Shown here: piece after piece, positions 175-3,334 of the stretch
Layout: each line of letters starts with the position of its first letter
Numbering within the stretch: position 1 is the first letter of the stretch
Assembly: GCF_003334785.1 (NCBI RefSeq)
Contig: NZ_QOWV01000051.1
Length of the DNA stretch: 3,334 nucleotides
Origin: Escherichia coli
GTDB taxonomy: Bacteria; Pseudomonadota; Gammaproteobacteria; Enterobacterales; Enterobacteriaceae
Strand: one strand, 5' to 3'
The notes under the pieces: generated by a model
What the model was told of the DNA's origin: nothing
The model's database searches: none
What the model saw: the letters and a program-made list of their open reading frames with translations, nothing else
Position numbers and translations under genes: made by a program

Positions 175-203
175 GGTGCGCGTAATGCGACGTTATGGTA
201 AAT
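175..203 (+). other. cer-like XerC/XerD site-specific recombination core (plasmid multimer resolution site)
   Basis: Seen in sequence: GGTGCGCGTAA-TGCGACG-TTATGGTAAAT. Right arm is identical to the ColE1 cer XerD arm as I recall it; left arm is one mismatch from the dif XerC arm GGTGCGCATAA. Central region is 7 bp (cer has 8, dif/psi 6). Accessory sequence would extend upstream across the wrap point. Confidence 0.5.
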
Positions 204-351: not shown

Positions 352-504
352 CTACTTAGATAACTGAGCCTTTACTGTATCTGCCCCTGCAAGCAGGAAC
401 CCAACAGTTAAGAACCACCCCCAGCCATTGATACCTTTTAGCGCTAGAATTGCTGCGCAAATGATGGCTGCTATAGGGACTATCTGGTACAGAAAATACT
501 TCAT
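352..504 (-). CDS. Hypothetical small hydrophobic protein (50 aa), possible membrane peptide
   Basis: Hand-translated ORF absent from the supplied track: ATG at 504..502 (- strand), stop TAG at 354..352. Product MKYFLYQIVPIAAIICAAILALKGINGWGWFLTVGFLLAGADTVKAQLSK has two hydrophobic segments. Weak SD-like GGGGT 7 nt upstream of the ATG; possible promoter GTGACA(561..556)-17-TCTCAT(538..533). Contains rare ATA and CTA codons. No recognisable family. Confidence 0.3.
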   Translation of the reverse strand: MKYFLYQIVPIAAIICAAILALKGINGWGWFLTVGFLLAGADTVKAQLSK

Positions 505-582: not shown

Positions 583-864
583 TTAGTGATAATCCTCGAG
601 ATCCACGTCAAAGACGTTAGGTTCTTCGAGCTTAAACACTACGCGCCAGTTTCCATTGACCTCTAACGAATACTCTCCTTGACGGTCTCCCTTCAATGGA
701 TGGCAGCGCAATGCCTTTAAATCCATCATATCCTGCAAGTTCGTCGCTGTGCTTAAGGCTGTTAGGATCAGCTTCAGACGTTGAGTAAACTGTTGCGGAA
801 TTCCTGCGTTGTTACCTGTTTCGGCAAACTTACGCAAACCTTTATGCTTGATATTTATGATCAT
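583..864 (-). CDS. higB: HigB-family toxin (plasmid maintenance system killer protein, RelE/ParE superfamily mRNA interferase)
   Basis: 93-aa ORF from the track. Motifs IKHKGL..F...G....GIP, HPLKGDR.G..S..VNGNWR and C-terminal DVD.EDYH match my recollection of the HigB/killer-protein family. ATG at 864..862 with GGTG SD-like sequence 4 nt upstream; stop TAA at 585..583. Confidence 0.85.
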   Translation of the reverse strand: MIINIKHKGLRKFAETGNNAGIPQQFTQRLKLILTALSTATNLQDMMDLKALRCHPLKGDRQGEYSLEVNGNWRVVFKLEEPNVFDVDLEDYH

Positions 865-1208: not shown

Positions 1209-1505
1209 ATGATTAATCTTGTCGATCCAGTACATCCAGGGGTTTTTATCCGTGAGATGTTTATGGAACCGTTTGAAATATCAGCCGCGGACCTGTCTGA
1301 AAAACTGCATGTATCACCTTCCACTCTAAGTAGAGTGCTGAATGGAAAAGCTGATTTAAGTGTTGAGATGGCATTAAGGCTTTCTCGAGTTCTTGGTCGC
1401 AGTGCCGAGTCGTGGATAAACATGCAGACTCAATACAGTCTTAACGCGAGCAGGAAGTCACCTAATGTCATTAAGGAATTAGATGAATTGGTTCCTATAT
1501 TTTGA
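1209..1505 (+). CDS. higA: HigA-family antitoxin (XRE-type helix-turn-helix addiction module antidote protein)
   Basis: 98-aa ORF from the track. N-terminal VHPG..IRE.F.EP...S...L...L.VS...LSR.LNGK..LS.EMALRLS...G.S.ESW.N.Q..Y.L matches the HigA-family HTH pattern as I recall it. ATG at 1209 with GAGGAAGG SD immediately upstream; stop TGA 1503..1505 followed by a terminator hairpin. Confidence 0.85.
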   Translation: MINLVDPVHPGVFIREMFMEPFEISAADLSEKLHVSPSTLSRVLNGKADLSVEMALRLSRVLGRSAESWINMQTQYSLNASRKSPNVIKELDELVPIF

Positions 1506-1542: not shown

Positions 1543-1571
1543 TTGACTCTCAGGCAACTGGATCGTATCGT
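1543..1571 (+). promoter_or_regulatory. RNAII (preprimer) promoter of the ColE1-type replicon
   Basis: -35 TTGACT (1543..1548), 17-bp spacer, -10 TATCGT (1566..1571); start near 1578..1580. Placement matches the ColE1/p15A arrangement, where RNAII begins just outside the RNAI terminator. Confidence 0.55.
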
Positions 1572-1579
1572 TTCTCGTA

Positions 1580-1683
1580 AACGAAAAAACCACCCGGCAA
1601 GGTGGTTTTTTCGAAGGTTCAGTAACCGGCAAGTTTCTGAACCAGGGTAACTGGCTTGGAGGAGCGCAGTCACCAAAACTTGT
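1580..1683 (-). ncRNA. RNAI: RNAI antisense copy-control RNA of a ColE1/p15A-type replicon
   Basis: - strand reads ACAAGTTTTGGTGACTGCGCTCCTCCAAGCCAGTTACC...AAAAAACCACCTTGCCGGGTGGTTTTTTCGTTT, closely resembling p15A RNAI as remembered, ending in a terminator hairpin plus U-run. Ends are approximate to within a few nt. Confidence 0.7.
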
Positions 1684-1690
1684 TCTTTCA

Positions 1691-1719
1691 GTTTAGCCTT
1701 AACTGGCGCATAACTTCAA
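1691..1719 (-). promoter_or_regulatory. RNAI promoter
   Basis: - strand: -35 TTGAAG (1719..1714), 17-bp spacer, -10 CTAAAC (1696..1691), start at A (1683). Same layout as the pBR322/p15A RNAI promoter as recalled. Confidence 0.5.
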
Positions 1720-2084
1720 GACTAACTCCTCTAAATCAGTTACCAGTGGCTGCTGCCAATGGTGTTTTGCATGTCTTTCCGGGTTGGACTCAAGATGATA
1801 GTTACCGGATAAGGCGCAGCGGTCGGGCTGAACGGGGGGTTCGTGCACACAGCCCAGCTTGGAGCGAACGACCTACACTGAACCGAGATACCTACAGCGT
1901 GAGCTATGAGAAAGCGCCACGCTTCCCGAAGGGAGAAAGGCGGACAGGTATCCGGTAAGCGGCAGGGTCGGAACAGGAGAGCGCACGAGGGAGCCACCAG
2001 GGGGAAACGTCTGGTATCTTTAAGTCCTGTCGGGTTTCGCCACCTCTGACTTGAGCGTCGATTTCTGTGATGCTCGTCAGGGGG

Positions 2085-2110
2085 GCGGAGCCTATGGAAA
2101 AACGCCTGCG
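2085..2110 (+). other. Origin of replication (RNAII to DNA transition region), approximate
   Basis: GCCTATGGAAAAACGCCTGCGGCGCGG aligns with the pBR322 origin segment GCCTATGGAAAAACGCCAGCAACGCGG, where leading-strand synthesis begins. The exact switch nucleotide cannot be fixed from sequence. Confidence 0.5.
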
Positions 2111-2176
2111 GCGCGGCCTTCTTCCTGTTCTTGGTCTTTTGCTCACATGTTCTTTCCGGCCTTATCCCCTGATTCT

Positions 2177-2185
2177 GTGGATAAC
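2177..2185 (-). promoter_or_regulatory. DnaA box (TTATCCACA on the - strand) downstream of the origin
   Basis: + strand TGTGGATAA at 2177..2185 within CTGATTCTGTGGATAACCG, the same context as the DnaA box next to the pBR322 origin. Confidence 0.5.
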
Positions 2186-2289
2186 CGTGCTGCCGTTTTT
2201 GTGTAAGTCAGTACCGCTCGCCGCAGCCGAACGACCGAGCGTAGCGAGTCAGTGAGCGAGGAAGCGGAAAAGCGCCTGGACGCGCATTT

Positions 2290-2440
2290 TCTCCTTACGC
2301 ATCTGTGCGGAATTTCACACCCGGCATGGGGCACTTTTCATACAATCTGCACTGATGCCGCATAGTTAAGCCAGTATACACTCCGCTATCGCTACGTGAC
2401 TGGGTCAGGGCTTCGCCCCGACACCCGCTGACGCGCCCTG
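2290..2440. other. bom/oriT-like region (basis of mobility) homologous to the pBR322/ColE1 nic region; no mob genes present
   Basis: GATGCCGCATAGTTAAGCCAGTATACACTCCGCTATCGCTACGTGACTGGGTCA and flanks are near-identical to the pBR322 segment between ori and rop that carries bom/nic, as I remember it. Boundaries and exact nick position are uncertain. Confidence 0.45.
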
Positions 2441-3053: not shown

Positions 3054-3102
3054 AAAAAAGCGGTGTCGGCGCGGTGTTGTAGCTGCGCCAACACCGCTTT
3101 TT
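3054..3102. terminator. Long GC-rich hairpin flanked by A6 and T5: candidate bidirectional intrinsic terminator
   Basis: Seen in sequence: AAAAAAGCGGTGT (3054..3066) pairs with ACACCGCTTTTT (3091..3102); inner GGCGC (3068..3072) pairs with GCGCC (3085..3089). Could insulate the cer-like site from incoming transcription (inference). Confidence 0.5.
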
Positions 3103-3257
3103 AGGGGTGGTACTGACTATTTTCATAAAAAACATCATTTTATATTAGGGGTGCTGCTAGCGGCGCGGTGTGTTTTTTTACAGGACGCCCCTGGGGGCGC
3201 TGCTAGGGGTGTCTGTTCAGATATGTAGCAATGAGTCAGGGATTCACGAACTGAAAA

Positions 3258-3334
3258 TGTCCGAAAATGTGTCTCATGGGCACCGTATGCGCCCAAACCG
3301 ATCGCCATTCACTTTCATGCATAGCTATGCAGTG
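3258..3334. repeat. Terminal redundancy: exact 77-bp copy of positions 1..77, indicating a circular molecule of about 3257 bp
   Basis: Checked base by base: 3258..3334 equals 1..77. The window ends at 3334, so the match may simply be truncated there. Confidence 0.9.

Follow-up and report, generated by a model that had tools for sequence, protein, structure and literature searches.

The DNA described here is a stretch of 3,334 nucleotides from Escherichia coli (contig NZ_QOWV01000051.1; in the following the window) which carries the replication origin of a small plasmid. The origin is very probably a working ColE1-type origin and a patchwork made by recombination between ColE1-family plasmids residing in the same cell, with a crossover in the block 1779-1826. 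In plasmids of this type the primer transcript RNAII stays hybridized at the origin and, once cut, primes DNA synthesis; binding of the antisense RNAI to RNAII by loop-loop contacts, which are stabilized by the Rop protein, blocks formation of the hybrid. An earlier note on this DNA had proposed a mosaic of p15A-like and pBR322-like parts, and this is borne out by the block identities and by a breakpoint test (chi-square 116.8). Window bases 1-77 are repeated exactly at 3258-3334, and this terminal redundancy means that the window is a circular plasmid of 3,257 bp read slightly beyond its own start.

Similarity to Classic Replicons Switches within the Origin

The classic replicons used for comparison were p15A, ColE1 (NC_001371, L001), pBR322 (its rop-bom-ori part carried inside NC_009716, L007) and CloDF13 (L002). 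For p15A we used a record of 4,245 bp in which the p15A origin is accompanied by tet(C) and catA1, the gene content of pACYC184 (L004), and a natural plasmid of 2,318 bp (L006), whose origin is placed at zero branch length from the p15A entry V00309 in the tree of a survey published in 2021 (PMC8683028). The pBR322 and p15A references are real database records. One further record, U36911.1 (L005), was dropped as a reference for pMB1, being a rearranged pUC-type vector without contiguous bom and rop.

Table 1. Identity of the window to three classic replicons, block by block
Block	p15A	ColE1	pBR322
1645-1681	97%	76%	76%
1682-1778	95%	72%	73%
1779-1826	98%	98%	98%
1827-1990	68%	98%	99%
1991-2110	89%	94%	95%
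2111-2215	40%	93%	82%
2291-2440 (bom)	57%	96%	91%

Like p15A (the origin of pACYC184; V00309), the window has an RNAI hairpin I of identical sequence, is 95-97% identical over 1645-1778, and lacks the insertion of 20-25 nucleotides which ColE1 (25 nucleotides), pBR322 and CloDF13 have at 1721/1722. It differs from p15A in hairpins II and III (65% identity), in mid RNAII, downstream of the origin and in bom. ColE1 is the reverse case. It is 93-98% identical to the window over 1827-2440 and has rop downstream, whereas 1579-1778 is 64-76% identical, none of the RNAI hairpins match and the RNAII promoter regions show no homology; the window plasmid, unlike ColE1, has no mob or colicin genes. The divergent blocks differ by insertions or deletions of 13-25 nucleotides.

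The segment from about 1790 to 2100 had been described as close to pBR322/pMB1, and 1827-2110 is indeed 95-99% identical to it. Further downstream pBR322 has an insertion of 11 nucleotides near 2125 and falls to 82% in 2111-2215, and its RNAI hairpins are different from those of the window. The same description had been given for bom (2290-2440); it holds at 91%, but ColE1 is closer at 96%, and from 2107 onward ColE1 is preferred over pBR322 at 33 of the 40 discriminating sites, against 7.

The breakpoint test was made on three sequences with the 215 informative sites which discriminate p15A from ColE1. Left of the break 42 sites are p15A-like and 13 ColE1-like, right of it 8 and 152. The maximum chi-square, with the break between 1778 and 1827, was reached in none of 5,000 permutations.

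RNAI Hairpins of a Third Type

The RNAI region had been considered nearer to p15A than to pMB1. This is right for hairpin I and the promoter side (97% against 76%), but not for 1579-1644, which holds hairpins III and II and is 62-65% identical to p15A (65%), ColE1 and pBR322 alike, and 76% identical to CloDF13. By these figures RNAI is p15A-type in hairpin I and on the promoter side only. Over 1579-1644 the window is 95-97% identical to small natural plasmids, namely L008 (CP052142.1, from Klebsiella), L009 (pMTY9757_Col440I) and L010 (pTA113-2). Hairpin II is near-identical in L009, L010 and L012, and unlike that of p15A, ColE1, pBR322 and CloDF13. The core of hairpin III, CCACCTTGCCGGGTGG, is identical in L008, L009, L010, L012 and L017; the p15A type of this core is CCGCCCTGCAAGGCGG and the ColE1 type CCACCGTTGGTAGCGGTGG. 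As judged from sequence, the replicon has at least three sources and not two, hairpins II and III being of the type found in small plasmids of Klebsiella and E. coli.

The plasmids CP052142.1 (pF17KP0040-4) and NZ_CP128938.1 (pMTY9757_Col440I) have an RNAI with the loop CUUGCCGG, and they resemble the window in hairpins II and III, where at most 1 nucleotide is different, in being 97% identical over 1579-1644, and in being 92-95% identical in the block 1682-1778. They are unlike the window in the loop of hairpin I, which is off by 1 nucleotide or has a 3-nucleotide change and an insertion, in a p15A-type mid RNAII (66-67% identity), and in having no homology to bom (5-9%).

It should be noted that the same apical octamer CUUGCCGG, with a palindromic CCGG core, is found in two loops of the window RNAI, loop III (1595-1602) and loop II (1626-1633). 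This would in principle permit cross-register contacts or contacts between two RNAI molecules. Two identical RNAI loops occur in none of the classic references compared.

Sibling Plasmids and a Proposed Exchange of Cargo

Other backbones with the same junction were found by ranking whole-origin matches below the near-identical copies; these are L013-L017. L020 shares the junction as well. L017 (NZ_CP130093.1, 4,694 bp, with mob genes) is 97-100% identical to the window in every segment. Uniform similarity to a single replicon, which the earlier note regarded as incompatible with a mosaic, is therefore found in a trivial sense among the siblings, but no characterized classic replicon has it. 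L013 (3,188 bp) is 99-100% identical over 1779-2440 and has p15A-type hairpins II and III; in L016 (5,973 bp) hairpins I and II are those of the window and hairpin III is p15A-type; L014 and L015 (pO26_4) have further variants of hairpins II and III.

L013-L015 encode the same Rop protein as the window and are 94-98% identical to it over the stretch that runs from 1579 past 3257 to about 204. In place of the segment 205-1578 they have different cargo. In the comparison with L013 only 2 of about 1,680 backbone nucleotides (1772 through 3257 to 197) are different, against 33 differences in the 193 nucleotides of the regulatory domain 1579-1771, with 24 of them in 1579-1644 and 9 in 1645-1771, the last cluster ending at 1771. 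At the other end the homology to L013-L015 stops at 203-205, that is at the XerD arm of a cer-like site. The pattern used to find this site has a single match in the window and no match in any of 200 shuffled sequences, and it recovers the cer core of ColE1 (L001 3909-3938, 30 nucleotides). The position where homology ends is consistent with an exchange of cargo at the cer-like site.

The Rop protein of the window is 64% identical to ColE1 Rop in amino acid sequence (E=9e-27), and rop together with the region past about 2450 has a nucleotide identity of 50-78% to ColE1. By sequence this part of the backbone belongs to yet another lineage.

Anatomy of the Origin

The coordinates of the features are collected in Table 2. 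All defining parts of a ColE1-type, RNAII-primed theta replicon that can be recognized in a sequence are present. The RNAI gene, 1581-1681 on the minus strand, is found by the Rfam model RF00106 with 91.3 bits (E=6e-17; gathering score 47). It folds into three hairpins with -47.2 kcal/mol (z=-6.4) and, with a length of about 105 nucleotides and a position antisense to the beginning of RNAII, agrees with what is found in ColE1-type replicons. The RNAII promoter lies about 500-550 nucleotides upstream of the conserved RNA-DNA switch, as it should in such a replicon, and rop, an auxiliary gene which is common but not universal in ColE1-type replicons, is there as well. No Rep initiator protein is found among the open reading frames of the plasmid.

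The RNAII promoter is the only sigma-70-like site reported by a consensus scan of 1480-2200 (mean in shuffled sequences 0.3), and it is situated directly 3' of the higA terminator hairpin (1505-1543). The canonical RNAII promoter TTGAGATC...CTGCGCGTAATCT of ColE1, pBR322, p15A and CloDF13 is missing from the window, and the homology to the classic replicons fades upstream at about 1563-1579. Each of the siblings L013-L016 carries a different sequence upstream of the RNAII start, which means that the boundary between cargo and replicon lies within the promoter of the primer. The 5' end of RNAII, at about 1578, was set from this promoter and from the alignment with the start of RNAII in ColE1 and pBR322. 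For the 3' end the switch site GGAAAAACG at 2097-2105 was used; with the rop coding sequence as coordinate anchor, window 2099-2101 aligns with pBR322 2533-2535, which we take to be the origin position of pBR322. The nic site of pBR322, taken to be at position 2254, maps to about 2369 in the window. Two G-runs of RNAII, 1834-1839 and 2080-2085, were read off the sequence.

The RNAI promoter was placed by eye and by a position-for-position alignment with the RNAI promoter region of ColE1 and p15A; in the consensus scan of 1480-2200 it is below threshold and nothing was reported there. Weak Rfam matches at about 1506-1614 (Trp leader, sroD and a second RNAI on the plus strand; E=0.03-0.5) are below the gathering scores and are explained by the terminator hairpins of higA and RNAI. 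In the records of RefSeq a small coding sequence called replication initiation protein is found inside the RNAII region, both in the window (about 1699-1997, minus strand) and in ColE1 (L001 784-942). This looks like an annotation artefact, because it overlaps the non-coding primer RNA.

Table 2. Features of the window
Feature	Position	Strand	Basis or remarks
cer-like XerCD core site	175-203	+	GGTGCGCGTAA TGCGACG TTATGGTAAAT; apparent 7-nucleotide central region; 29 nucleotides
Variable cargo segment	205-1578		holds the 50-amino-acid open reading frame, the RelE/HigB-type toxin and HigA
Hydrophobic open reading frame, 50 amino acids (MKYFLYQIVPIAAIICAAILALKG...)	352-504	-	in cargo segment
RelE/HigB-type toxin	583-864	-	RefSeq annotation: RelE/ParE family
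HigA antitoxin	1209-1505	+	TIGR02607, 96 bits
RNAII (primer) promoter	1543-1571	+	TTGACT, 17-nucleotide spacer, TATCGT
RNAII primer transcript, about 520 nucleotides	1578-2101	+	runs to RNA-DNA switch
RNAI antisense copy-control RNA	1579-1684	-	Rfam RF00106 and three-hairpin fold
RNAI hairpin III and terminator, Klebsiella small-plasmid type	1582-1613	-	core CCACCTTGCCGGGTGG
RNAI hairpin II, Klebsiella small-plasmid type (GGTTCAGAAACTTGCCGGTTACTGAACC)	1616-1643	-	same in L008, L016, L017
RNAI hairpin I, p15A type (GGTGACTGCGCTCCTCCAAGCCAGTTACC)	1646-1674	-	same in p15A (L004, L006), L013, L015, L016, L017, L020
p15A-like block	1645-1778		RNAI hairpin I, RNAI promoter, RNAII nucleotides ~67-200
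RNAI promoter	1690-1719	-	TTGAAG, 18-nucleotide spacer, TAAACT
Conserved block containing crossover	1779-1826		98% to p15A, ColE1, pBR322
ColE1-like block	1827-2440		mid RNAII, origin, downstream region, bom with nic at ~2369
rop (rom), 64 amino acids	2502-2696	-	RefSeq WP_001041633.1, Rop family protein

A Model for the Mosaic Origin

The model postulates that RNAII starts at about 1578 from the promoter 1543-1571 and is processed to a primer at about 2099-2101. RNAI, transcribed on the minus strand from 1684 to 1579, would bind RNAII by loop-loop contacts stabilized by Rop and in this way set copy number and incompatibility. The regulatory 5' domain, 1579-1778, would come from the side of the family to which p15A and the small Klebsiella plasmids belong, and the domain for primer maturation, origin and bom, 1827-2440, from the ColE1 side. 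We infer that the two were joined by homologous recombination between co-resident plasmids in the 48-nucleotide block 1779-1826, which is kept in all members. Members of the lineage with this junction would differ in how far foreign sequence reaches in from the cargo side. If one crossover fell at any of several conserved points in hairpins III, II or I or in the next block, and another at the cer/Xer site (175-203) or close to it, cargo and RNAI hairpins would be swapped together. Recombination in a block conserved at 98%, together with a second exchange at or near Xer, seems the most economical route to the sequences observed.

Tomizawa and Masukata are said to have located the elements for alternative pairing which respond to RNAI within about the first 200 nucleotides of RNAII, and reportedly a G-run/C-run interaction farther downstream in RNAII is required for hybrid formation. 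If RNAII is read in this way, the crossover block 1779-1826 would separate two self-contained functional modules, and this would explain the viability of the hybrids.

A number of points weigh against the model or limit it. A triplet test assigns no direction to the exchange, and the combination found in the window could be the older one. The involvement of an Xer site is read from one observation, the end of homology at the XerD arm. Where divergence is highest, as in 1892-1960 against p15A, the alignment is uncertain. The comparison by hand (see below) covers 17 origins only, and the classic replicons among them are p15A, ColE1, pBR322 and CloDF13. The proportion of a tenth given below for records with the window combination comes from 6 of 60 sampled rows only. 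For incompatibility, the co-residence case described below is a single example, and an assembly cannot prove that two plasmids come from one cell line; loop differences alone do not predict compatibility (bioRxiv 10.1101/2021.11.25.470029).

The failure of the triplet test to assign a direction leaves room for a model of opposite polarity, in which the arrangement of the window, no insertion and a ColE1-type mid block, came first, and p15A, ColE1 or both arose later by recombination. That the most divergent member examined, CloDF13, shares the ColE1-type mid block (91% identity to the window), and that the window combination is frequent (about 6 of 60 sampled rows), would fit this polarity. 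There is no positive evidence for it, however. A mid block of p15A type is widespread, too (L008, L009, L010 and L012; about 12 of 60 sampled rows), and the very recent exchange relative to L013, with its 2 differences in about 1,680 nucleotides, shows that swaps into the backbone are ongoing. We consider the opposite polarity unlikely, though by no means negligible.

It could also be argued that there was no recombination at all, and that the pattern reflects uneven rates of change: RNAI would evolve fast to escape incompatibility while the origin-proximal region is conserved. The hairpin II/III stretch is in fact the most variable part among siblings which are otherwise near-identical, and the blocks 1779-1826 and 1991-2110 are conserved in all members. 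Uneven rates cannot, however, make p15A 95-97% identical in 1645-1778 and 68% identical in 1827-1990 when ColE1 shows the reverse; the divergent blocks moreover differ by insertions and deletions of 13-25 nucleotides, and all four combinations of blocks exist. The hairpins themselves are difficult to reconcile with this explanation, as 24 of the 66 positions in the hairpin II/III stretch disagree with L013, and this stretch is 97% identical to L008 and L009 in spite of the mid block of the other type in these plasmids, and convergence at so many sites is implausible. The breakpoint test, the block identities and the block combinations effectively refute uneven rates, and we regard them as a very improbable explanation.

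A chimeric assembly or a laboratory construct from p15A and ColE1/pBR322 vector parts might be suspected, since contaminating vector origins of the p15A and pMB1 types turn up throughout the databases and several exact matches to pBR322 or p15A are found in implausible hosts, but this is refuted by the independent records of the plasmid described below (60 at 99% identity or more, and 37 with at least 80% of it, from independent laboratories and varied hosts, sources and countries), and the plasmid has neither marker gene nor polylinker, its hairpins II and III and its Rop (64% to ColE1 Rop) match no vector, and the block identities are 95-99% and not 100%.

Mosaicism in the ColE1 Family

The 17 origins compared by hand can be sorted by the insertion in 1682-1778 and by the type of mid block (1827-1990). 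Without the insertion and with a ColE1-type mid block are the window, L013-L017 and L020; without the insertion and with a p15A-type mid block are p15A, L008 and L009. The 20-25-nucleotide insertion goes with a ColE1-type mid block in ColE1, pBR322, CloDF13 and L011, and with a p15A-type mid block in L010 and L012. All four combinations thus exist in nature, and mosaicism is a property of the family and not peculiar to the window plasmid.

The hairpins can be coded in the order I, II, III as P (p15A), K (Klebsiella small-plasmid), E (ColE1) or D (CloDF13) type. The window and L017 are then (P,K,K), L016 is (P,K,P), L013 is (P,P,P'), L020 is (P,P,E) and L010 is (D,K,K). Such sets would be expected from single crossovers at varied points along III, II, I and the next block.

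The frequency of the window combination was estimated with a query covering both diagnostic blocks (1690-1960), from which 60 rows evenly spaced over 4,921 matches were inspected. By coverage the sample falls into the same four classes. About 6 of the 60 rows are full-length like the window, which suggests that roughly one in ten of the ColE1-like database records shares its combination; about 12 have a p15A-type mid block.

From these observations a more general hypothesis can be formulated: in ColE1-family plasmids the RNAI hairpins may reassort almost independently, through crossovers at various conserved positions in the 5' part of RNAII which are coupled to an exchange of cargo anchored at cer/Xer, so that incompatibility specificity is traded as a cassette between near-identical backbones. 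This is quite possible, although we put it forward tentatively. If true in general, exchange of such hairpin/cargo cassettes would be a main route to new ColE1 compatibility groups, and the contradictions between marker-based typing schemes would be accounted for.

Osborn et al. (reference 31 in PMC8683028) are said to have described in 2000 mosaic IncFII-related replicons in which recombination within the replicon reassorts the antisense-RNA incompatibility determinant. By analogy, the determinant would be reassorted against the rest of the origin as in the window; these mosaics differ in belonging to another replicon family, with copA/repA control and initiation by a Rep protein.

A separate case of exchange is found in a 1,551-bp Col(MG828) plasmid, L021 (NZ_CP057242.1), where 1262-1321 is 100% identical to the 60 nucleotides of the bom/nic core of the window (2367-2426). 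This plasmid is co-resident and differently typed, and the identity implies that the core of the transfer origin circulates independently of the replicon.

Incompatibility

The earlier note had called the incompatibility group of this recombinant ColE1-family replicon not obvious, and this view stands, as its set of RNAI hairpins matches no classic reference compared. One of the three hairpins, hairpin I, is in common with p15A, and none with ColE1, pBR322 or CloDF13. Against the p15A group, the loops and also the stems of hairpins II and III are different; against the ColE1/pMB1 group no hairpin matches and 1579-1681 is 62-76% identical; and against CloDF13 all three hairpins differ. With a p15A hairpin I and hairpins II and III with the loop CUUGCCGG, we infer from the loops and from one case of co-residence that the specificity is probably distinct from p15A, ColE1/pMB1 and CloDF13.

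The case in question is strain Res13-Sevr-PER06-05-b-A, whose records include both L020 and a copy of the window plasmid (L022, origin 100% identical). In L020 hairpin I is that of the window and the mid block is 98% identical, but hairpins II and III are different, which suggests that differences in these two hairpins are enough for coexistence. It has been found by directed evolution that changes in the loops can create compatible ColE1 origins (bioRxiv 10.1101/2021.11.25.470029). Compatibility of the window plasmid with vectors of the p15A and pMB1 type is only probable. The IncX1 plasmid and the 1,551-bp Col(MG828) plasmid of another host strain are uninformative on ColE1 compatibility.

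Replicon Typing

The 2021 survey (PMC8683028) deals with 1,035 ColE1-like plasmids. Its Table S2 lists NZ_CP033853.1 (3,257 bp), NZ_CP010205.1 (3,258 bp) and NZ_CP022068.1 as Col440I, with Rop and HigA; these three match the window at 97.8-99.9%. The assignment is that of Table S2 and follows the PlasmidFinder criterion of at least 95% identity and 60% coverage. The natural p15A plasmid is also typed as Col440I there, and pO26_4 as ColRNAI. In contrast, MOB-suite (PLSDB) puts NZ_CP057241.1 and NZ_CP062818.1, which are the same plasmid as the window, in rep_cluster_2350 together with ColE1 and a pBR322 derivative, and p15A in cluster 2335. The conflict between the two schemes arises because each reads another block of the mosaic.

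The survey presents one tree based on whole origins and mentions recombination at oriT and cer; the passages of it which we searched do not treat recombination within the origin explicitly. A single whole-origin tree for the family averages conflicting histories, and the type given to a small Col plasmid from one marker does not indicate its incompatibility. The window plasmid is already catalogued and widespread, its mosaic origin is an unsurprising, family-wide property, and the understanding of ColE1 replication is unchanged. The practical consequences are modest: the lineage offers natural RNAI variants on near-identical backbones, which are a possible test set for the determinants of ColE1 compatibility and could serve as extra compatible origins for work with several plasmids.

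Occurrence and Other Features of the Plasmid

In the plasmid collection 60 records match the window plasmid at 99% identity or more over the best aligned stretch, and at least 80% of the plasmid is present in 37 records. The records come from independent laboratories in the UK, Canada, the USA, Japan and Hong Kong; the hosts are E. coli, E. fergusonii, Salmonella and Shigella, and the sources pigs, sheep, cattle, poultry, food, humans, soil, river water and wastewater. Among 5,426 complete E. coli genomes, 25 contain an essentially intact copy.

The open reading frames with family support are the RelE/HigB-type toxin, HigA and Rop. The 50-amino-acid open reading frame at 352-504 (minus strand) has no NCBIfam match and is unannotated in the RefSeq records of the plasmid. 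Two reports on poultry were set aside: a paper on Salmonella Reading from turkey concerns a Col440II/ColRNAI-like plasmid of 10.4 kb and not the window plasmid, and a preprint on S. Heidelberg from poultry litter concerns other ColE1 plasmids.

The whole 3.26-kb plasmid is also found embedded in larger Salmonella plasmids from ground turkey, namely CP082640.1 and CP082530.1 (both 13,949 bp) and NZ_CP022068.1 (19,849 bp). The last has two copies of it and an IS91-family transposase and is listed as Col440I/Col440I; the functional-annotation supplement of the 2021 survey (PMC8683028) has it with blaTEM-1B. These larger plasmids are apparent cointegrates or multimers.

The conserved backbone from rop to the cer-like site holds an inverted repeat of 18 nucleotides at 3055-3102, 94% complementary and with a 12-nucleotide loop, and pO26_4 differs from it chiefly in the loop (3073-3084). 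It is followed at 3101-3158 by the direct repeats TTAGGGGTGGTACT and TTAGGGGTGCTGCT.

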